A program made the position numbers and the translations under genes. The notes beneath the pieces are model-generated. The model saw nothing but the letters and a program-made list of their open reading frames with translations, was not told the origin of the DNA and searched no databases. Positions 1,214 to 10,422 of a DNA stretch of 10,422 bases are shown piece after piece. Location of the stretch: contig JBBQPO010000223.1 of the NCBI GenBank assembly GCA_038217285.1, positions 1 to 10,422 on the forward strand. The letters run 5' to 3'. Origin of the DNA: Chthonomonadales bacterium (GTDB taxonomy: Bacteria; Armatimonadota; Chthonomonadetes; Chthonomonadales; Chthonomonadaceae). Within the stretch, counting starts at the first letter, position 1. Each line of letters opens with the position of its first letter.

Positions 1214-2386
1214 ATGAAGCGCCATCTGCTTCTGCCACTCGTCTGGCTGGTATGGGCTGCGTCCGTGAACGGGCGAGGCGCGGAACAGCCTGCGGACGAC
1301 TCCCTTCCCTCTCCTGAGCAGCGGATCGCAGGTCGGGAGTTTCCGTCGGTGTTCCAGGCCTGGAGCCCGGCGGACAACCTGCCTGCGGAAGACCCCTGGA
1401 CCACGCTGGCGCGGCACGACCTCATCTTTCATGCGCCTGACTTCTTCGAACTGAAATGGGATACGGCGCCGACCGGCCTGGCGACTGGCTTCACGCCGGA
1501 GAGCGTCGCCGCCGCGCTCGCGCTGCGCAGCCAGCTTCTGGCCCGAAATCCGCATCTTGTCCTGCTGGCGGAAATTCGGTATCGGGACGCCCCTCGCTCC
1601 TATCTGCCCGCAGACTCTCCATGGTGGAAGCGCGACAGATCCGGAAAGTTTGTGATGGGCTGGGAAGAGGGCGGGTATATCCTGCTCGATCTCGCCAACC
1701 CAGCGTTCCAGCGGCAGGTGGCGGCGCAGGCGCGGGCGGCGGTGCGAAGCGGCGTTTTCGACGGCGTTATGCTCGACTGGTGGCAGGACGATGACGATCA
1801 CCTCGCCCTCATCAAGCAGGTGCGCGCCGCCATAGGTCGGGACGCGCTGATCCTGGGCAATGCAAACGACCACACGACTCCCCGCACAGCGCCCTACATC
1901 AACGGCTATTTCATGGAGTGCTATCGGAGCCGGACCGCCGAGGACTGGCAGCGTATCGCGGAGACGCTCGCCTGGGCAGAGAGACATCTGCGTACGCCGC
2001 GGATCGACTGTCTGGAGACCTGGTACCACACCTCTCGGCAGGATCTCGCCCTGATGCGGGCTACGACTGCCCTCGCCCTGACAGCCTCGGACGGCTACTG
2101 TCTCTTCTCCGATCCCAATCCCCTCCCAACACCGGACCATCTGCACAACTGGTACCCGTTCTGGGACAAGAGCCTGGGCAGTCCGCGTACGCGCGGCAGG
2201 AAACAGCCGGATGGGACGGTTCGCCGCGAATTCGCGCAGGGCGCCGTCGTCTACAACCCGATGGGCAACCCCGCGCGCACGATCACCTTCCCCGACGAGC
2301 GCCGCAGCATCGCCACCGGCATCACCTCCCGTACCCACACCCTCAACGCTCCGGACGGAGATCTCTACTTGCACCCGTCAAAATAG
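1214..2386 (+). CDS. Secreted putative glycoside hydrolase (TIM-barrel; resembles GHL15/GH168-like proteins)
   Basis: 390 aa with signal peptide MKRHLLLPLVWLVWAA. Aromatic-rich, with motifs YILLDLANPAFQ, FDGVMLDWW, NGYFMECY and a C-terminal beta domain (RREFAQGAVVYNP). It starts 7 nt after the esterase stop. The CDS is well supported, but the family assignment is from recall only. Confidence 0.65.
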   Translation: MKRHLLLPLVWLVWAASVNGRGAEQPADDSLPSPEQRIAGREFPSVFQAWSPADNLPAEDPWTTLARHDLIFHAPDFFELKWDTAPTGLATGFTPESVAAALALRSQLLARNPHLVLLAEIRYRDAPRSYLPADSPWWKRDRSGKFVMGWEEGGYILLDLANPAFQRQVAAQARAAVRSGVFDGVMLDWWQDDDDHLALIKQVRAAIGRDALILGNANDHTTPRTAPYINGYFMECYRSRTAEDWQRIAETLAWAERHLRTPRIDCLETWYHTSRQDLALMRATTALALTASDGYCLFSDPNPLPTPDHLHNWYPFWDKSLGSPRTRGRKQPDGTVRREFAQGAVVYNPMGNPARTITFPDERRSIATGITSRTHTLNAPDGDLYLHPSK

Positions 2387-2395
2387 CCCTCTGAC

Positions 2396-2438
2396 GAAAG
2401 CGAGCCGCCGAAACAGTCTGTTTCGGCGGCTCGCTTTC
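2396..2438. terminator. Perfect inverted repeat, probable bidirectional terminator between convergent genes
   Basis: GAAAGCGAGCCGCCGAAACAG (2396-2416), T, CTGTTTCGGCGGCTCGCTTTC (2418-2438). It lies between the stops at 2386 (+) and 2454 (-). Confidence 0.8.
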
Positions 2439-2453
2439 ACAAGATAGCGGCGT

Positions 2454-3809
2454 CTATTTCGGATGCGCGTTCGGCAGCTCTGCGGGTGGGATGATCCTGT
2501 CAGGGCGGGCGACGACGTTGAGGGTCATGGTCTGTTTCACGCCGTTGCGCTCGACTGTGATGGCAAGTTTATCGGCGGGATGCAGGCGCATAAACGTCGC
2601 ACGCACCCCCGACAACGACATGACGGGTTTGGCGTTCAGCTCGACAAGAATATCGCCCGGTTGAAGCCCGGCCTTCTGAGCAGGGGAATCGGGATAGATG
2701 CCACGGATGCGTACATATCGCACGACCTTGATGATGCCGTCTTCGTCGTTCACTTTGCGGTCAGGCTTCAGATCGACGCCCACCCAGGTGCGGACGATTT
2801 TGCCGTTGGCGATCAACTCCTTAATGGAGAACCGGAGATCGTTGATCGGAATGGCGAATCCTGTGCCGGTGACCGGCGGACGCAGAAACACGCGCATTGG
2901 CGGAATGCCATTCTGTTCCGTGGGAAACGGCGCCTGACCGAAGACGAACAGGTTCTTACCGTGGGCCTGCTCGGACTGGTCGGCGCGCGGTTCCGGCTGT
3001 GGCTTCTGTAATCGGGGCGCATCCGGCGGGAGATCTTTCTCCCGACCTCCTGGAGCAGGACGAAATGAGGGCTCGGTATAGACCTGTGTTTCCGTCCATT
3101 CTCCTGCGGGAACGCCCGCAATCACACCGATGACTTCGCCCCGTGCATTCAGAAGAGGCGCGCCGCTTGTGCCCGCGCCGATGGTTCCGGCGATCTGGAG
3201 CAGCGCTGGGTAGAAGTGGTCGCCGGTATGTGTGCCGTCGGTGCGAATGCCGGCGATCATCGCCAGTGCGACCGAATTGGCATGTCCGGCCTGATTGCCG
3301 ACAGAGATGGCGAAATGTCCTGCCGCTACCGTATCCGAGTCGCCTATTTTCAGCGCGGAGAGGTTGGCTTTTGCGGGGAGCTGAAGCACACCCAGGTTCA
3401 TTTCGGAATCGATGCCAACGATTTTAGCGCGCATCCGTGTGCCATCATCCGCAATAACCAACGGCCGTTGCATGCCTTCCACGACGTCTGCGGTCGTCAC
3501 TACATAACCATTGCCGATCAAAAAGCCGCTGCCCGACTTCGGCGCATTGGCGCGCTCCAGAGCGTTAGGCCCTCTCCGTCCCTGCTGGCCTGCAAGGCGT
3601 CGCGAGTCAGAGTTCGCGTCGGCCCGGTGCGGAGGCGGGGCTCCCTCATCCTCAATGGCAACAACCCCGCCTTTATTGGCGCGCACGATGGCGGCGATTT
3701 CGTTCTGCATCTGTTCCAGAAGGCCATCGGCATGGACCGCAGGGACCGCGCCGAGAAGCAGTAGGGCCGCCAGAACGAGCGGGAGGGTAATTTCAATTCG
3801 AGTTACCAT
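2454..3809 (-). CDS. HtrA/DegP-family trypsin-like protein with one PDZ domain; degenerate catalytic triad (probable pseudoprotease)
   Basis: 451 aa with a signal peptide ending AVHA. HtrA fold motifs SGSGFLI, LKIGDSD, GTSGAPLLNARGEVIGV and GFAIP; PDZ motifs RTWVGV and DSPAQKAGLQPGDIL. Triad positions read D108/N138/S215. The start overlaps the upstream stop (ATGGTAA). Confidence 0.9.
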   Translation of the reverse strand: MVTRIEITLPLVLAALLLLGAVPAVHADGLLEQMQNEIAAIVRANKGGVVAIEDEGAPPPHRADANSDSRRLAGQQGRRGPNALERANAPKSGSGFLIGNGYVVTTADVVEGMQRPLVIADDGTRMRAKIVGIDSEMNLGVLQLPAKANLSALKIGDSDTVAAGHFAISVGNQAGHANSVALAMIAGIRTDGTHTGDHFYPALLQIAGTIGAGTSGAPLLNARGEVIGVIAGVPAGEWTETQVYTEPSFRPAPGGREKDLPPDAPRLQKPQPEPRADQSEQAHGKNLFVFGQAPFPTEQNGIPPMRVFLRPPVTGTGFAIPINDLRFSIKELIANGKIVRTWVGVDLKPDRKVNDEDGIIKVVRYVRIRGIYPDSPAQKAGLQPGDILVELNAKPVMSLSGVRATFMRLHPADKLAITVERNGVKQTMTLNVVARPDRIIPPAELPNAHPK

Positions 3810-4648
3810 GCGCCACCGTCCTCGGTTCCGTCACTGGAGGCTGTCACGCCAGCTCCGGTCTGCGCCACCGGAATACTGCCCATGACATAACGGCGCGCTG
3901 GCTCCTCGTCCGCGGGCGGGGCGACCGGGTTCAAAACGAAGTTGCGCGGCTGCCGGCGAGGCGGGACGTTTCCGCCATCCAACTGCGCGGCATAGTCCGC
4001 AGGGATCGAAGCCGGTCTGGCCGGGCCTGCGAGCCGGGCGGCACGCGCATGCGGTCGGCGGCGCGGAGGCGACGATCTCGGCTCGACCGCAGGCCCGGCG
4101 TTTGCGTGGGGACTTGTGAGCCGTGTCACCGCGCCGGGGAAGAAGGAGCCAAAGCCCAAAAAGGAGGAGAGGAGGTCGTGCCCGCCTGCCTGCGGCTCCC
4201 TTTTCGCAACCATGCCCTCGGGCGGCGACGAAGCTTCGTGGACGGACGGCACACCCTGCTGCGGGCCATTCGGGCGCGGCGCATCGACAGTCTTCTTGGG
4301 GCCATGGGCGCCGCCGAAAAAGACGACGAGCAGCATAGCCGCCAGGGCGGTCCCGGCGCCCGCAAGCGTCAGGCGCGGCAGCAGATCGGCAGACCGGCGC
4401 GCGGCCTGCCGGTGGGTCGCCAGGCCGTGGCGTAGATCCTGCCAGGTCCTTTGCGAAGCCGGAATAGGCTGGCTTCGCGCCGCGCCCAGCATCCCGACCG
4501 TATATCGATAGGCCTCCGCCTCTGCCTGACAACGTGCGCACTGCTGTAGATGGCGCTCGACGTGCGCCGTCTCAGCCGCAGAGAGCCGCTGGGAGGAATA
4601 GTCCCAGAGACTATCAGACACTTTGCTGCATTCGCTTCTAAACCACAT
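3803..4648 (-). CDS. Membrane-anchored zinc-binding anti-sigma factor (ZAS / zf-HC2)
   Basis: 281 aa with C7-x25-H33-x3-C37-x2-C40 (HLQQCARC), one TM segment (LTLAGAGTALAAMLLVVFFGG) and a Pro/Arg-rich C-terminal region. It begins 5 nt after the ECF sigma stop. Confidence 0.88.
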   Translation of the reverse strand: MWFRSECSKVSDSLWDYSSQRLSAAETAHVERHLQQCARCQAEAEAYRYTVGMLGAARSQPIPASQRTWQDLRHGLATHRQAARRSADLLPRLTLAGAGTALAAMLLVVFFGGAHGPKKTVDAPRPNGPQQGVPSVHEASSPPEGMVAKREPQAGGHDLLSSFLGFGSFFPGAVTRLTSPHANAGPAVEPRSSPPRRRPHARAARLAGPARPASIPADYAAQLDGGNVPPRRQPRNFVLNPVAPPADEEPARRYVMGSIPVAQTGAGVTASSDGTEDGGAW

Positions 4649-4653
4649 TATTG

Positions 4654-5301
4654 CTAGCCCCCCGGCTTCATTAACGACGTCACACGCTCTTTCAACGCTC
4701 GCCGCGCCCGGAACAGACGGAGCTTCACGCTGGTGCGCGAACAGCCCAGGATGGCGGCGATCTCGTCATAATTCAGATCTTCGATCTCATGCAGTACGAT
4801 AATGATCCGCTGCGACTCCGGCATACCCCGCAGCACCCGGAAGATCGTGTCGGTCATCTCGTTGCGCTGTACGATGGCGAGCGGATCTTCGGACTCGCTG
4901 CTGGCGCCCATCTGCTCGTCCCGCAGCGTCGAATCATACACGACCTTACGGCGATCCCAGGACTTGATACGATCCCGGCACAGGTTGCCGCATATCTTCA
5001 ACAGCCAGGTCTGGAGACTGGACTCGCTGCGAAATGACTTGATGGCCTGATACGCTCGCAGAAAAGTATCCTGTTTGATATCGTCGGCGTCTTCGCGGTT
5101 GCCCAGAAGATGGTAGGCGTAGCGAAACACCTGGCGCTCATACTGTGCATAGACCTGTGCAAACGCATCCTGGTCCCCGGCACGGCAGCGCGTCACCAGT
5201 TGATCTTCGACTCCTGGCATTCTCACCCCGGTCGTGGCAATCATGTTCGATTGTCGCCCTCCTGTCTGTACAGAAAGGTTAGACGACGCTCTGTTCGCCA
5301 T
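4654..5301 (-). CDS. ECF-type sigma-70 factor (start uncertain: ATG 5301, 5244 or 5220)
   Basis: Region 2: DADDIKQDTFLRAYQAIKSFRSESSLQTWLLKICGNLCRD. Region 4: MPESQRIIIVLHEIEDLNYDEIAAILGCSRTSVKLRLFRAR. ATG 5301 follows AAGGG; ATG 5244 follows AGGAGG at 13 nt. The track start at 5427 overlaps the purL promoter and is unlikely. Confidence 0.93.
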   Translation of the reverse strand: MANRASSNLSVQTGGRQSNMIATTGVRMPGVEDQLVTRCRAGDQDAFAQVYAQYERQVFRYAYHLLGNREDADDIKQDTFLRAYQAIKSFRSESSLQTWLLKICGNLCRDRIKSWDRRKVVYDSTLRDEQMGASSESEDPLAIVQRNEMTDTIFRVLRGMPESQRIIIVLHEIEDLNYDEIAAILGCSRTSVKLRLFRARRALKERVTSLMKPGG

Positions 5302-5382
5302 GTATCGCCCTTTTCCATGCCTGGACGGACGCTTACCCGCCAAACATTTCGGCTCGACCGGTTTCCGCCCGTTCGGGACGGG

Positions 5383-5412
5383 TTGACCCTCGCCCGCGTG
5401 ATGGGCTATACT
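5383..5412 (+). promoter_or_regulatory. Housekeeping sigma-70-type promoter for purL
   Basis: TTGACC (5383-5388), an 18-nt spacer and TATACT (5407-5412); each box is a 5/6 match to consensus and lies in the divergent intergenic region. Confidence 0.7.
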
Positions 5413-5436
5413 AAGAGCAGGATTCAATACGTGCCG

Positions 5437-5467
5437 GAGGCGCAGTGTCTGCGCCTCTTTGTGTTTG
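5437..5467 (+). terminator. Intrinsic-terminator-like hairpin in the purL leader (possible attenuator)
   Basis: GAGGCGCAG-TGT-CTGCGCCTC (9-bp perfect stem) followed by TTTGTGTTTG. The U-rich tail is present on the + strand only. Confidence 0.55.
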
Positions 5468-5486
5468 TGATGGAGGAGAAGACGCT

Positions 5487-7934
5487 TTGGTTACCCCGCA
5501 GATGGTTCGCGACATGGGCCTCAACGCCGCCGAGTATCAGCAGATCCTCGGTATCCTGGGCCGGGAACCGACCTATACCGAGCTGGGGATGTTCTCCGTG
5601 ATGTGGTCGGAACACTGTGGATATAAGTATTCCCGCCCGGTGCTGGCGCTGTTCAAGAACTATAAAGAGGCGCAGGAGAGCGGCGCACTGGAAAATGCGG
5701 GCGTCATTCCCCTGGATGAGAACCTCGGCATCGTCTTCAAAGTCGAATCGCACAACCACCCTTCCGCTGTCGAGCCGTTCCAGGGCGCGGCCACCGGCGT
5801 CGGCGGCATTCTCCGCGACATCTTCACCATGGGCGCGCGGCCTATCGCCAACCTCAACTCCCTCCGCTTCGGTCCCCTCGATGAGCCGCGCAATCGCTAC
5901 CTGTTCGAACAAGTCGTCGCCGGGATCTCGCACTACGGCAACTGTGTGGGCGTGCCGACGGTCGCGGGTGAGATCTATTTTCATCCCTGCTACAGCGGCA
6001 ATCCCCTGGTAAACGCTATGTCGGTCGGCGTGGTGGAGTTGAAGAACGTGGCGAGCGCCGCCGCGAAGGGCGTCGGGAACCCCGTCGTCTATGTCGGCAG
6101 CGCGACGGGCAAAGACGGCATTCATGGCGCGACCTTCGCCAGTGTCGAGCTCGGCCCCGACAGTGAGAGCAAACGCCCGAATGTGCAGATGGGCGACCCG
6201 TTCCTGGAAAAACTGCTAATCGAGGCCACGCTGGAAGCCCTGGCGAGCGGCTATATCGTCGGCATTCAGGATATGGGCGCGGCGGTACTGACCTGCTCCA
6301 CCTGCGAGACGGCGGCGAAAGCCGGAACGGGCATGGAGATCGACGTGCGCAAGGTTCCCCTGCGCGAGGCCGACATGACCTCCTACGAGATCATGCTCTC
6401 CGAGTCTCAGGAGCGGATGCTCTGCATCGTCGAAAAAGGCAAAGAGCAGCACATTCTCGACATTTTCAAGAAGTGGGGACTAAATGCCGCCGTGATCGGC
6501 GTGGTGACGGACGATGGCCTGACCCGCATCAAGGACAACGGCGTCGTGGTGGCGGAGATACGCGCCAAAGCCCTTACCGACGAGTGCCCCGTCTACACTT
6601 TGGAGACAGCGGAGCCGGACTATATCAAGCAGTTGCAGGCGTTCGACCTGACCTCTCTGCCGGAGCCGATCATCGCCCTCATTACGGAAGAGGACGAAGC
6701 CGAAGAAGAGGCTCAGGAATCGCTGCCCGAGGAGGACGAAGAGACGTCCGAGGCCGACGACGAAAGTTTCGAAGTGGAAGAGGATGGCGTGGCGGAGACG
6801 TTCCCGCAGATCGAGGCGGCGCTGGCGCATCCCCGCTTCGTGCCGGGGCAGACCACCTATGCCGATGTGTTCTGGAGCCTGCTCGATTCGCCGAGCCTCG
6901 CGAGCAAAGCCTGGGTCACCGACCAGTACGACAGCATGGTGCAGACGCAGACCGTGACGCTGCCCGGCTCGGACGCGGCGATTCTGCGGATTCGCGGCTC
7001 GAAGAAGGGCATCGCGCTCAAACTGGATGGGAATGGGCGCTACGGCCACCTCGATCCCTTCGTCGGCGGTCAGATCGCGGTTGCGGAGGCGGCGCGGAAC
7101 GTGGTCTGTGTCGGGGCGCGGCCGGTCGCTGTGACCGACAACCTGAATTTCGCCAGCCCCGAGAAGCCGACCGGCTTCTGGCAGTTCCGCCGCTCGGTGG
7201 AAGGGATCGTCAGCGCGACCGAGGCGTTCGGAACGCCGGTCGTCTCGGGCAATGTCTCCTTCTACAACGAGACGCCGGAGTACGGCCCGATCCATCCGAC
7301 GCCGACCATCGGAATGCTGGGCATTCTGGACGACGTGAATCGCCGCTGCACCGCAGGCTTCCGGGAAGACGGCGAAGGCGATACCGTCGTGCTCCTGACG
7401 GCCTACGACGATCCGACCGGGGGACTGGGCGGCAGCGAGTATCTGAGCCTGGTGCATGGCGAGGAGGCGGGCGTGCCGCCTCGCCTCGATCTCGAAGGGG
7501 AGAAACGCCTGCACACCCTGCTGCTCGAAGGCATCGGTGAGGGCCTGTTCGCCTCCTGCCACGATGTCTCCGACGGCGGCCTGGCGCTCAACCTGGCGGA
7601 GAGCGCGATGATGGGCTGCATCGGCGCGCTTATTCTGCTCAACCGCAACGATTTTCCGGGCGAGCTGCCGCCCTCCGCCCTCCTCTTCGGAGAGGCGCAG
7701 GGTCGGGCCGTCGTCACGGTCCGGAACGAGAAGCAGTTCACGAAGCTGAAAGAGCGCGGCGAGAAGCTGGGCATCCGCGTCGCCTGGATCGGGACCGTAG
7801 GCGGCGGAAACCTGCGCATCGCGCAGGGGCCGGATATCCTTTTCGACCTCCCAGTTGCACAGATCAACCGGGTTTCGCAAAACGCTCTCCCGCGCCGCAT
7901 GAACACCCGGGCTGAGGAGGCAGTGCTGAGTTAA
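5487..7934 (+). CDS. purL: Phosphoribosylformylglycinamidine synthase subunit PurL (small type, FGAM synthase II)
   Basis: Motifs MWSEHCGYK, FKVESHNHPSAVEPFQGAATGVGGILRD, GKDGIHGATFAS, EIMLSESQERM, QYDSMV, VVSGNVSFYNET and HDVSDGGL. The start is reassigned to in-frame TTG 5487 after RBS GGAGGAG (5472-5478), because the track start at 5445 lies inside the leader hairpin. Confidence 0.97.
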   Translation: MVTPQMVRDMGLNAAEYQQILGILGREPTYTELGMFSVMWSEHCGYKYSRPVLALFKNYKEAQESGALENAGVIPLDENLGIVFKVESHNHPSAVEPFQGAATGVGGILRDIFTMGARPIANLNSLRFGPLDEPRNRYLFEQVVAGISHYGNCVGVPTVAGEIYFHPCYSGNPLVNAMSVGVVELKNVASAAAKGVGNPVVYVGSATGKDGIHGATFASVELGPDSESKRPNVQMGDPFLEKLLIEATLEALASGYIVGIQDMGAAVLTCSTCETAAKAGTGMEIDVRKVPLREADMTSYEIMLSESQERMLCIVEKGKEQHILDIFKKWGLNAAVIGVVTDDGLTRIKDNGVVVAEIRAKALTDECPVYTLETAEPDYIKQLQAFDLTSLPEPIIALITEEDEAEEEAQESLPEEDEETSEADDESFEVEEDGVAETFPQIEAALAHPRFVPGQTTYADVFWSLLDSPSLASKAWVTDQYDSMVQTQTVTLPGSDAAILRIRGSKKGIALKLDGNGRYGHLDPFVGGQIAVAEAARNVVCVGARPVAVTDNLNFASPEKPTGFWQFRRSVEGIVSATEAFGTPVVSGNVSFYNETPEYGPIHPTPTIGMLGILDDVNRRCTAGFREDGEGDTVVLLTAYDDPTGGLGGSEYLSLVHGEEAGVPPRLDLEGEKRLHTLLLEGIGEGLFASCHDVSDGGLALNLAESAMMGCIGALILLNRNDFPGELPPSALLFGEAQGRAVVTVRNEKQFTKLKERGEKLGIRVAWIGTVGGGNLRIAQGPDILFDLPVAQINRVSQNALPRRMNTRAEEAVLS

Positions 7935-9809: not shown

Positions 9810-10422
9810 ATGGCTACCATTACGATAAGCAGACCATCGGTCGGGCAGCTTGCGTTGCTGACGACCGCCGCACTGACCTCGGCGGTCGTGGTGCGCTATT
9901 TCGGCAGCCGCAAAGCGAGCGCGGCGGAGCGGCTGACGGAGGGTCTGCTGGAGACGACCCGCCTGCATACCGCCGTAGGGCATCTGCCCGACGCTTCCCA
10001 TCTCGCGCTGGCGGAGTGCGGAGGCTACCTCCTGAACGTCGCGCTCCGGGCCGCGCCGGGAGTCGGTATCGCGCGCGGAGACGACGACCCGATCGGGTCC
10101 AGCCGCACGCAGACGCACAGCTTCACGGGCACCACCGCGACGGTCCGCACAGAATCCGCCGCGCCGGATCGGACCATCAACTATACTGTCACCATCCCGG
10201 ACATCGGGGAGGTGCGTGGTATCCGACGCGTCGGCGCGCTGCAGATGGAAGGCTTCGTGCCCGCCCACGCCACGCCGGACACCGTGCAGATCGTGCTGGC
10301 CGACGGCTATACGGCGCAGATCGAGACGGACCTGCACACGGCGGAAAATATGATTGTCGGCAAGGACCGGGTCTTCGGCTCGCTCGCCCTGCACGACAAC
10401 CAGGGCAATGCCGGACACATCC
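9810..10422 (+). CDS. Hypothetical protein with N-terminal membrane anchor/signal, 3' truncated by window edge
   Basis: Strong RBS GAGGAGG (9792-9798) and ATG 9810, open for 204 codons to the window end with GC3-rich codons: MATITISRPSVGQLALLTTAALTSAVVVRYFGSRK...TINYTVTIPDIGEVRG...VQIVLADGYTAQIETD...FGSLALHDNQGNAGHI. Absent from the ORF track because there is no stop in the window. Confidence 0.8.
   Translation, partial: MATITISRPSVGQLALLTTAALTSAVVVRYFGSRKASAAERLTEGLLETTRLHTAVGHLPDASHLALAECGGYLLNVALRAAPGVGIARGDDDPIGSSRTQTHSFTGTTATVRTESAAPDRTINYTVTIPDIGEVRGIRRVGALQMEGFVPAHATPDTVQIVLADGYTAQIETDLHTAENMIVGKDRVFGSLALHDNQGNAGHI

Follow-up and report, generated by a model that had tools for sequence, protein, structure and literature searches.

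An HtrA-like protein with an altered catalytic triad encoded in an ECF sigma/anti-sigma operon of Chthonomonadales

What might a protein of the HtrA family do when the histidine and the aspartate of its catalytic triad are replaced? The question arises from a stretch of 10,422 nucleotides of a Chthonomonadales bacterium (assembly GCA_038217285.1, contig JBBQPO010000223.1), which is the window analysed here. A preliminary description of this DNA had read one gene as an HtrA-like protein with the triad D108/N138/S215, in an intact reading frame. It had proposed a conserved pseudoprotease. The ECF sigma/anti-sigma operon, the Asp or Glu conserved in place of the His, the invariant Ser and oxyanion-hole glycines, and the insert in loop L2 were absent from that description.

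The HtrA-like protein and its altered site

The gene is the third of an operon on the minus strand and is followed by a hairpin.

4654..5427 (-), ECF sigma factor, gene 1 of the operon (longest ORF, 257 aa)
3803..4648 (-), membrane anti-sigma factor, gene 2 (281 aa; zf-HC2 domain, one hydrophobic segment, tail)
2454..3809 (-), HtrA-family protein D108/N138/S215, gene 3 (intact ORF, 451 aa)
2395..2439 (-), hairpin of 21 bp, directly 3' of the HtrA-like stop codon

The HtrA-like protein presents the following elements.

3729..3809 (-), putative Sec signal peptide, residues 1-27, by inspection (MVTR..., hydrophobic core, VHA/DG)
3123..3533 (-), Trypsin_2 protease-fold domain with the altered triad (Pfam)
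2874..3113 (-), Pro-rich, predicted-disordered L2 insert, residues 233-312 (alignment and predicted model)
2514..2780 (-), PDZ domain (Pfam PDZ_2, residues 344-432, 42.9 bits, and PDZ_6)
2775-2786 (-), carboxylate-binding loop WVGV of the PDZ domain, residues 342-345 (W342 and G344 nearly invariant)

With a Trypsin_2 domain (residues 93-229; 80.4 bits, cut-off 27.6) followed by a PDZ domain, the protein belongs to the HtrA/S1C superfamily. The family consensus at the end of the signal peptide is AxADG. The sequence matches in the PDB (HMMER) are DegP, MucD, DegQ, AlgW and DegS. Likewise, the AF2 model (pLDDT 79.6) has DegP, DegQ, MucD and DegS as top Foldseek matches. The score against TIGR02037 (degP_htrA_DO) is 174.5 bits and does not reach the cut-off of 416.2. 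The protein stays under every cut-off of the other NCBIfam models for HtrA, DegP, DegQ and DegS, and neither RseB nor MucB appears among its Pfam or NCBIfam matches. The His-Asp-Ser triad of the active Do family, which a DegS-type site-1 protease also carries, is absent. The oxyanion-hole motif G-x-S-G-x-P is present as GTSGAP.

The minus-strand codons are GAC at 3488-3486 for D108 (TTADVV), AAC at 3398-3396 for N138 (NLGVL) and AGC at 3167-3165 for S215 (GTSGA). The triad of E. coli DegP is H105/D135/S210. In the HMMER alignments with solved DegP-like, MucD and DegQ chains, D108 occupies the column of the catalytic His, N138 that of the catalytic Asp and S215 that of the nucleophile. The canonical IQTDAAIN is replaced by LQIAGTIG. 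Both the triad and the drift of this motif had been read correctly in the preliminary description. By these alignments, the predicted secreted protein, of HtrA fold with one PDZ domain, has a carboxylate (Asp108) where the catalytic His would stand and Asn138 where the catalytic Asp would stand.

The substitutions are conserved. All 44 full-length close homologues present D/N/S, and one further sequence is E/N/S. The alignment also includes four canonical outgroup sequences, all of them H/D/S. Across 19 relatives, the best match is D/N/S in 17, E/N/S in one and S/N/N in one. A library of 1.84 billion proteins gave 137 aligned rows: 45 D/N/S, 24 E/N/S, 55 H/D/S, two fragments (-/N/S) and 11 with other combinations, which include some misaligned multi-PDZ proteins. 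The altered residues recur in dozens of clusters at 50% identity.

The sequences with D/N/S and E/N/S form one clade (SH-aLRT 95), with the E/N/S sequences as the sister subclade of the D/N/S family. One D-type sequence is nested within the E clade, so the carboxylate at the His site survived D/E swaps. All 69 family representatives carry Asp or Glu at this site. S215, G213 and G216 are conserved in 69/69 and P218 in 68/69. No His or Lys column able to rebuild the triad is conserved in the family (the highest reaches 32/69), which rules out an alternative His. The columns specific to the D or the E subclade are 54, 108, 140 and 206. The last three cluster at the active site, and this clustering points to a finely tuned site, for whatever purpose.

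We estimated dN/dS in 10 within-genus pairs. The values are 0.05-0.14 for the protease domain and 0.10-0.29 for the PDZ domain; no other part of the protein is under stronger constraint than the protease domain. The source genome has 11 Trypsin_2 genes, and the other 10 keep H/D/S. Profile alignment (D and N at the His and Asp columns) and orthologues under purifying selection agree with the preliminary description.

Positions 2400-3160 and 3142-4441 are matched by Logan contigs of run X1 without a single difference; this match is not independent because X1 may be the source sample. The contigs of runs X2, X3 and X4 come from related strains and have lower identity.

Two other regions characterize the family. 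The L2 insert is 20-170 aa long; in the alignment of full-length members it spans 21-155 aa, compared with 5-8 aa in canonical HtrAs. Its pLDDT is mostly <50, Pro makes up 15.5% of it, and its flanks VPAGEW and FLRPPVT are conserved. The PDZ loop, already described as kept, reads W-x-G-x in 35/35 modules. It has the x-hydrophobic-G-hydrophobic form, with which the PDZ domain is predicted to be capable of binding a free C-terminus.

The operon and the tail of the anti-sigma factor

The first ORF matches Pfam Sigma70_r2 (64.2 bits) and Sigma70_r4_2 (57.4 bits), and NCBIfam TIGR02937 (sigma70-ECF) with 109.4 bits (cut-off 42.9). Its nearest NCBIfam models are RpoE- and SigW-like, both under cut-off. 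Orthologue matches start at residue 41-64 of this ORF, and translation probably begins further downstream, one candidate being the ATG at 5301-5299. Together with the zf-HC2 protein encoded next, it is a class I ECF sigma/anti-sigma pair. The available portion of the 2021 ECF reclassification paper (PMC7826278) mentions no HtrA, PDZ or Armatimonadetes context.

The ATG of the HtrA-like gene overlaps the stop codon of the anti-sigma gene by 7 nt (ATGGTAA), which suggests coupled translation. The hairpin at 2395..2439 has a fold energy of -45.7 kcal/mol (z = -6.5), and 0/200 shuffles fold as well. It is a probable terminator common to the HtrA-like gene and the convergent gene at 1214-2386 (+). 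A scan for sigma-70-like promoters gave a single site, on the + strand before purL.

The order ECF sigma, zf-HC2 membrane anti-sigma, HtrA-like is preserved. In 33 of the 35 modules (30 genomes), the anti-sigma gene immediately precedes the HtrA-like gene on the same strand; the other two modules lie at contig ends. In the genomes searched, high-score members of the family occur in one order of the phylum only. The public records of close relatives are named Chthonomonadaceae or Chthonomonadales. A second, paralogous module of this kind also occurs in this bacterial order. The source genome also has a canonical sigma/anti-sigma/H-D-S HtrA module on another contig (C11), whose anti-sigma factor ends in ...FQPR.

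In other taxa, sigma and anti-sigma genes also lie upstream of degenerate HtrA-like genes. The triads of these modules are DGP, DAP, EAP, SGN, SGI, SDM, NGS and SNS, many without Ser, and the proteins encoded upstream end in V, F, V, F, L, M, F, F, F and E. Several of these modules group with the family, with no H/D/S member inside (SH-aLRT 91 and 87, from a quick search with SH-aLRT only). The loss of Ser in these related modules favours a non-catalytic role.

The anti-sigma factor presents these features.

4526..4630 (-), zf-HC2 anti-sigma domain, residues 7-41 (Pfam, 26.6 bits, cut-off 22.2)
4310..4384 (-), predicted transmembrane segment, residues 89-113 (hydrophobic run, by inspection)
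3806..3982 (-), region of conserved tail motifs (alignment of 15 orthologues)
3971-3982 (-), tail motif LDGG
3923-3943 (-), tail motif NFVLNPV
3878-3895 (-), tail motif RRYVMG, V255 invariant
3806-3817 (-), tail motif GGAW, terminal

Its HxxxCxxC motif is invariant in 15 orthologues, and the NCBIfam anti-sigma model NF052375 stays under cut-off. The extracytoplasmic tail has about 165 aa of low complexity and ends in ...GGAW. The terminal residue of the linked anti-sigma factors is W in 22, Y in 9 and L in 2 of the 33 modules. The source genome contains 18 unlinked zf-HC2 frames, of which none ends in W or Y and one ends in F. D-type modules go with W and E-type modules with Y (8/8). This W/Y split follows one phylogenetic split and hence does not count as independent co-variation, and no specificity position in the PDZ domain stood out as separating the W-type from the Y-type subclade. 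In all 22 W cases, the TGG codon is part of the overlapping start of the HtrA-like gene (ATGG in 19, GTGG in 3). The Y and L cases have no such overlap. The terminal W signal is confounded by this start codon. A complex prediction with residues 28-451 of the HtrA-like protein and 215-281 of the tail, run with no controls, gave no verdict (score 0.00) and speaks neither for nor against binding.

A candidate role and its alternatives

The preliminary idea of a conserved, repurposed HtrA is supported as the best reading of these data. We infer that the protein has lost its proteolytic activity. It is probably a binding partner in envelope-stress signalling, not an ordinary protease. It would act in the periplasm, bound to the anti-sigma factor encoded in the same operon. 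The PDZ domain would dock the conserved aromatic or hydrophobic C-terminal residue of the disordered tail, and the cleft (D/E108, N138, S215, intact oxyanion hole), remodelled yet under strict conservation, may hold a short tail motif. The complex would gate the site-1 cleavage of the anti-sigma factor by a true protease. This role might be like that of RseB guarding RseA, or of a DegS that would sense without cutting. Envelope signals, such as the exposed hydrophobic C-termini of unassembled envelope proteins, might compete for the PDZ domain. On the operon and the tail, we lean, with some reserve, towards this docking and gating. Several points go against it, including the finely tuned active site, the confounded terminal W, the single phylogenetic split behind W and Y, and the quick search behind the wider-clade support. 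The invariant S215 and intact oxyanion hole are what a working enzyme would keep, which opposes a binding partner. Moreover, the anti-sigma factor of one distant module ends in E, which opposes tail docking. In the literature searched on HtrA pseudoproteases, anti-sigma-linked HtrA and Armatimonadota HtrA, we found only MamO and unrelated pseudoproteases; the family is not described there.

Could the substitutions be an artefact? An error of sequencing or assembly, or a pseudogene in decay, is refuted by the intact ORF, the 44 of 44 homologues, the dozens of clusters at 50% identity, dN/dS values well below 1, the synteny and the X1 contigs without differences. We found no point in its favour and give it a negligible probability; the preliminary description had already dismissed it. 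An active enzyme has more to recommend it. Asp108 or Glu would activate S215 while Asn138 orients it, and the protein would be a dedicated site-1 protease of the anti-sigma factor, a task that its position in the operon fits. A serine-carboxylate protease keeps a small chance, since neither S215 nor the oxyanion-hole glycines vary in the family; P218 is kept in 99% of the 69 representatives. The Asp or Glu at the His site in 69/69, kept through D/E swaps, the subclade-specific changes gathered around the active site, and the strong constraint on the protease domain would also fit. However, the nearest sister lineages, which share the operon context, retain Asp or Glu and have Pro in place of Ser (DAP, EAP, DGP), so the carboxylate is kept without a nucleophile. 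Further lineages have N, I or M at the Ser position. A general base would rarely tolerate a D/E exchange. The S1 pocket of HtrAs is shaped by loop L2, and in this family that loop carries the disordered insert of 20-170 aa. We know of no precedent for a Ser-carboxylate protease of chymotrypsin fold, and none was found in the literature searched on HtrA pseudoproteases. In sum, we consider a catalytic role quite improbable.

The protein could also be an output of the regulon. It would then be a chaperone-only HtrA (holdase) that binds misfolded envelope proteins and makes no specific contact with the anti-sigma tail, and its place in the operon would reflect co-regulation only. The HtrA fold and the PDZ domain are intact, which fits this role. 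Co-regulation has parallels in the actinobacterial htrA genes that follow sigE-rseA and in mucD, a member of the algU operon. The canonical module on C11 makes sigma-linked HtrA outputs plausible in this lineage. In addition, htrA/degP is a classic member of the RpoE regulon, according to the available portion of PMC8103513. Nevertheless, co-regulation leaves unexplained the W/Y/L ends (31/33 aromatic when linked, against 0/18 W or Y when unlinked), the conserved motifs of the anti-sigma tail and the start/stop overlap. The ...FQPR end of the C11 anti-sigma factor also counts against it. We regard this alternative as unlikely, and the tail-docking partner stays the preferred reading.

Comparison with known systems

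In the textbook model of envelope stress, an active HtrA protease (DegS, AlgW) works with an unrelated guard (RseB, MucB). In P. aeruginosa, MucD and AlgW are active H/D/S proteases, and MucA is guarded by MucB, which is not an HtrA. The actinobacterial sigE-rseA-htrA operon has the same order as the module described here, with an ECF sigma, a zf-HC2 type anti-sigma and an HtrA with canonical triad. The algU-mucA-mucB-mucC-mucD operon of P. aeruginosa is also similar: its HtrA-family mucD lies in an ECF sigma/anti-sigma operon and influences signalling (10.1101/2024.05.28.596254, available portion). The structures of MucD and AlgW are among the top PDB matches of the HtrA-like protein.

The E. 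coli sigmaE system, as presented in the available portion of PMC8103513, shares with this module an ECF sigma held by a single-pass membrane anti-sigma factor. There, the periplasmic HtrA-family protein DegS reads C-terminal residues via its PDZ domain, which resembles the proposal made here. On the other hand, the His-Asp-Ser triad of DegS is intact, and its gene lies outside the rpoE operon. DegS reads the C-termini of OMPs, whereas the candidate ligand here is the C-terminus of the anti-sigma factor itself. RseB is not an HtrA; the operon-encoded periplasmic partner found here has an HtrA fold without the His or the Asp.

MamO of magnetotactic bacteria (PMC4794232, available portion), an established HtrA pseudoprotease, is likewise a product of duplication: its triad is degenerate, and selection keeps it for a non-catalytic role beside active paralogues. 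MamO keeps His and Asp and has Thr for Ser, with a non-glycine residue at the oxyanion-hole position. It binds metal through a di-His site and carries a fused TauE transporter domain. In contrast, the family described here has replaced His and Asp, conserves Ser and the oxyanion glycines in all members, has no conserved His and is found in a sigma/anti-sigma operon. Pfam finds no TauE domain in its protein, which scores 30 bits against the MamO NCBIfam model (cut-off 800).

Sedolisins are Ser-Glu-Asp peptidases on the subtilisin fold, in which a carboxylate replaces His and catalysis is proven. The fold is different here, catalysis would be a proposal from sequence, and the relatives lose the Ser. 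If the D/E-N-S site were catalytic, the protein would be the HtrA counterpart of sedolisins, a site-1 protease tethered to the tail. With an invariant Ser beside a conserved carboxylate, the family is a natural test of a Ser-carboxylate centre in the chymotrypsin fold. Across an entire bacterial order, an HtrA without the triad is retained as the third component encoded in the operon, and in related modules of other taxa the triads are degenerate to a still greater extent. If the PDZ domain of this HtrA reads the aromatic C-terminus of the anti-sigma factor encoded beside it, a classic pathway would be wired in a new way, with a protease scaffold turned into a receptor or a guard.

Sequence and conservation of the HtrA-like protein

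The HtrA-like gene (2454-3809, - strand) is an unbroken ORF of 451 residues. The window is the entire contig of 10,422 bases, and the genome comprises 6.2 Mb in 459 contigs. Pfam places Trypsin_2 at residues 93-229 (E 2.9e-22) and PDZ_2 at 344-432. All the curated NCBIfam models for HtrA, DegP, DegQ and DegS match the protein, each far under its own cut-off (TIGR02037: 174.5 bits, cut-off 416.2). HMMER alignments with solved DegP-like, MucD and DegQ chains locate the catalytic positions as follows.

Catalytic positions of the HtrA-like protein
3488-3486, - strand: GAC, D108, motif TTADVV, aligned with the catalytic His
3398-3396, - strand: AAC, N138, motif NLGVL, aligned with the catalytic Asp
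3167-3165, - strand: AGC, S215, motif GTSGA, aligned with the nucleophile

The preliminary description had claimed D108, N138 and S215 in an intact HtrA-like ORF. Codons, Pfam matches and HMMER alignments bore out every testable detail. The predicted structure agrees as well. The AlphaFold2 model (input 50 sequences; mean pLDDT 79.6, pTM 0.73) is confident in the protease barrel and the PDZ domain, and disordered at about residues 233-310. Its top Foldseek hits are DegP, DegQ, AlgW, MucD and DegS. The segment equivalent to loop LA, from the first beta-strand to the protease core (3540-3644, - strand), varies from about 0 to more than 200 low-complexity residues across orthologues in the family alignment A2.

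When 5.8 billion proteins were searched through a word index, a compact family came up with E values of 1e-45 or better; ordinary DegQ/DegP-like proteins followed only after a gap, at about 1e-32. The three named members of this family are all Chthonomonadaceae. In a 50-sequence alignment, D/N/S is found in 44/44 full-length members. The protein P0045 has E/N/S, one fragment has D/N without the Ser region, and the canonical outgroup sequences are H/D/S (4/4). The best matches in 19 related genomes are D/N/S (17), E/N/S (1) and S/N/N (1); none is H/D/S, the state that would have spoken against the altered triad. The window's genome has 11 Trypsin_2 matches, and the 10 besides the HtrA-like protein are all H/D/S.

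Selection was estimated from five within-genus orthologues (Nei-Gojobori, 10 pairs). The dN/dS ratio was 0.05-0.14 in the protease domain, 0.10-0.29 in the PDZ domain and 0.15-0.30 in the loop insert (7/10 pairs computable); these ratios are only approximate, because dS (0.8-2.5) is near saturation. Logan contigs of sequencing run X1, possibly the source sample, show 0 differences over 2400-4441. So the earlier view that this is neither a sequencing error nor a decaying gene holds, with D and N conserved under purifying selection. We regard an error or a pseudogene as having a negligible chance.

The probable operon and its distribution

The window also carries these genes.

Neighbouring genes
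289-1206, + strand: secreted BD-FAE / alpha-beta-hydrolase esterase
1214-2386, + strand: GHL15-family putative glycoside hydrolase
3803-4648, - strand: anti-sigma factor of 281 residues (zf-HC2, one hydrophobic segment, low-complexity tail of ~165 residues)
4654-5427, - strand: ECF sigma factor (Sigma70_r2, r4_2; TIGR02937 over cut-off)
5445-7934, + strand: PurL (FGAM synthase II)
9810-10421, + strand: 3'-open ORF of at least 204 aa, hydrophobic N-terminal segment, no Pfam match

Both sigma and anti-sigma genes lie directly upstream of the HtrA-like gene on the same strand. The anti-sigma stop overlaps the HtrA-like start (ATGGTAA), and a 21-bp hairpin (-45.7 kcal/mol, z -6.5) is 3' of the HtrA-like stop. 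Because of this arrangement, the three genes look like a single operon. The longest sigma ORF starts at TTG and adds ~40-60 N-terminal residues; orthologue matches begin at 41-64, and the true start is probably an internal ATG, for example 5301-5299 (- strand). The esterase and GHL15 genes adjoin, both convergent with the operon, and the pair fits a carbohydrate-scavenging lifestyle. In PurL, a strongly acidic, E/D-rich low-complexity insert of ~45 residues separates the two AIRS/AIRS_C halves and looks unusual for this enzyme.

Of 35 non-redundant modules (sigma, anti-sigma, HtrA-like) drawn from 30 genomes, 33 have the anti-sigma gene immediately upstream of the HtrA-like gene and on its strand; the remaining 2 are at contig ends. 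High-scoring members (E 1e-60 or better), sought in 401 genomes of the phylum, occur in 18/31 genomes of the window's family, in 3/21 of one other family within its taxonomic order, and in 0/348 of the remaining families. Most E-type and more distant forms escape this threshold. In the species-level genome collection, the records of close relatives bear the titles Chthonomonadaceae or Chthonomonadales.

Five genomes have two modules each. In G302 both are D/N/S. G008, G019, G020 and G390 have one D-type and one E-type (L060-L063, L043-L045), the D/N/S module with a W-ending anti-sigma factor and the E/N/S module with a Y-ending one. The two types are paralogous signalling systems, apparently kept separate. 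One orthologue (L048/L018, G015:C1:356392-358032, nearly complete genome) was flagged for one in-frame TAG. An open frame of 565 aa covers its protease and PDZ part, and the TAG probably falls within the variable linker at the N-terminus or indicates that the start lies elsewhere.

Family anatomy, anti-sigma tails and wider relatives

A 42-member profile was searched against 1.84 billion cluster representatives, and 137 rows were aligned (the query, 132 new hits, 4 references). They comprise 45 D/N/S, 24 E/N/S, 55 H/D/S, 2 fragments (-/N/S) and 11 others, which include several misaligned multi-PDZ proteins. Among the 69 D/E-N-S rows, conservation is 100% at N138, G213, S215 and G216 and 99% at P218. 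His or Lys columns do not exceed 32/69, so no substitute base is conserved. The family-specific changes compared with canonical HtrAs are T106, A107, N138, Q173, L203, G208 and G211. Loop L2 carries an insert of 21-155 residues (15.5% Pro) between the conserved flanks VPAGEW and FLRPPVT, against 5-8 residues in canonical HtrAs. Columns 54, 108, 140 and 206 separate the D and E subclades, and 3/4 of them ring the altered site. In a quick IQ-TREE of 54 rows, built with the triad columns included (3/357), D/N/S and E/N/S form a single clade (SH-aLRT 95). Within it, support is 95 for the D clade and 99 for the E clade, in which the D-type P0192 is nested.

The anti-sigma factors keep an invariant H/C/C zinc motif in 15/15 orthologues. 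Their tails are otherwise unalignable, with the common motifs LDGG, N(F/Y)V(L/I)xP and (R/H)x(Y/F)V(I/M)G (V255 invariant in this last motif), and the terminal residue. Of 33 modules, 22 have W as the last anti-sigma residue, 9 have Y and 2 have L. E/N/S modules end in Y (8/8); the 25 D/N/S modules end in W (22), L (2) or Y (1), the Y case being the D-type that falls inside the E clade. The W/Y division matches a single split in the phylogeny. As a control, 0/18 other zf-HC2 frames of the window's genome end in W or Y (L,R,E,E,L,N,P,H,V,L,R,D,P,R,G,K,G,F). The TGG of the terminal W lies within the overlapping HtrA-like start in 22/22 cases (ATGG 19, GTGG 3), which makes selection for W inseparable there from selection for the start codon. 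Y- and L-ending genes have no such overlap. The PDZ carboxylate-binding loop reads W-x-G-x in 35/35 modules.

A pattern scan of the species-level collection found ten loci of the Chthonomonadales type, which pair D/N/S with W and E/N/S with Y. By record titles, further loci come from Fimbriimonadia, Candidatus Euphemobacter, Cytophagia, Candidatus Udaeobacter, Patescibacteria and other bacteria. In these wider loci the sigma gene is upstream of the HtrA-like gene, except in L098, where it is downstream; a sigma hit was not found in L110. A zf-HC2 frame is likewise upstream in 8. Their triads are DNS, NGS, DGP, SNS, SGN, DAP, EAP, SGI, SDM, QGN, TGA and NGD, and the last residues of the proteins encoded upstream are E,V,F,V,F,L,M,F,F,F. 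A quick tree of 55 rows places DAP/EAP and a second DNS lineage as sisters of the core family (SH-aLRT 91). A set of 25 degenerate rows groups with no H/D/S member among them (support 87), and a second degenerate group (NGS, SNS, others) stands apart on an unresolved backbone. The placement of DAP/EAP means that the carboxylate at the His site outlasts the replacement of Ser by Pro.

Proposed role of the HtrA-like protein

Two other functions were weighed. The invariant Ser and oxyanion hole could suggest a protease with a Ser-carboxylate pair. However, the carboxylate persists in lineages where Pro replaces Ser; such sequences are hard to reconcile with a base serving Ser, and we consider this activity improbable. 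Somewhat less doubtful, yet still unlikely, is that the protein acts only as a chaperone output of the regulon, without specific anti-sigma contact. In its favour, contig C11 of the same genome (19144-22197) has a module of the same gene order with a canonical HtrA, which may resemble the ancestral state of the dead-triad module.

Canonical module on contig C11
19144-20868, - strand: H/D/S HtrA
20903-21526, - strand: zf-HC2 anti-sigma factor, ending ...FQPR
21505-22197, - strand: sigma factor

Among characterised bacterial HtrA pseudoproteases, MamO comes closest. It differs from the window's protein in residues lost, oxyanion hole, metal site, domain fusion and genomic context (PMC4794232). 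In the most similar pathways, sigmaE/RseA/RseB/DegS and AlgU/MucA/MucB/MucD/AlgW, the HtrA members are active. Literature searches, with most subscription journals outside their coverage, gave no account of a D/E-N-S family, nor of any sigma/anti-sigma operon containing a triad-less HtrA.

The best-supported reading, which we hold to be rather likely, is that the HtrA-like protein is a non-proteolytic periplasmic partner of its own anti-sigma factor. The PDZ domain would dock the aromatic or hydrophobic C-terminus of the anti-sigma factor, and the conserved cleft may hold one tail motif. The complex would gate site-1 cleavage by a true protease of the same genome. Every binding and gating step here is inferred, on a logic borrowed from DegS/RseA/RseB (PMC8103513). 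A plausible signal would be competing hydrophobic C-termini of unassembled envelope proteins.
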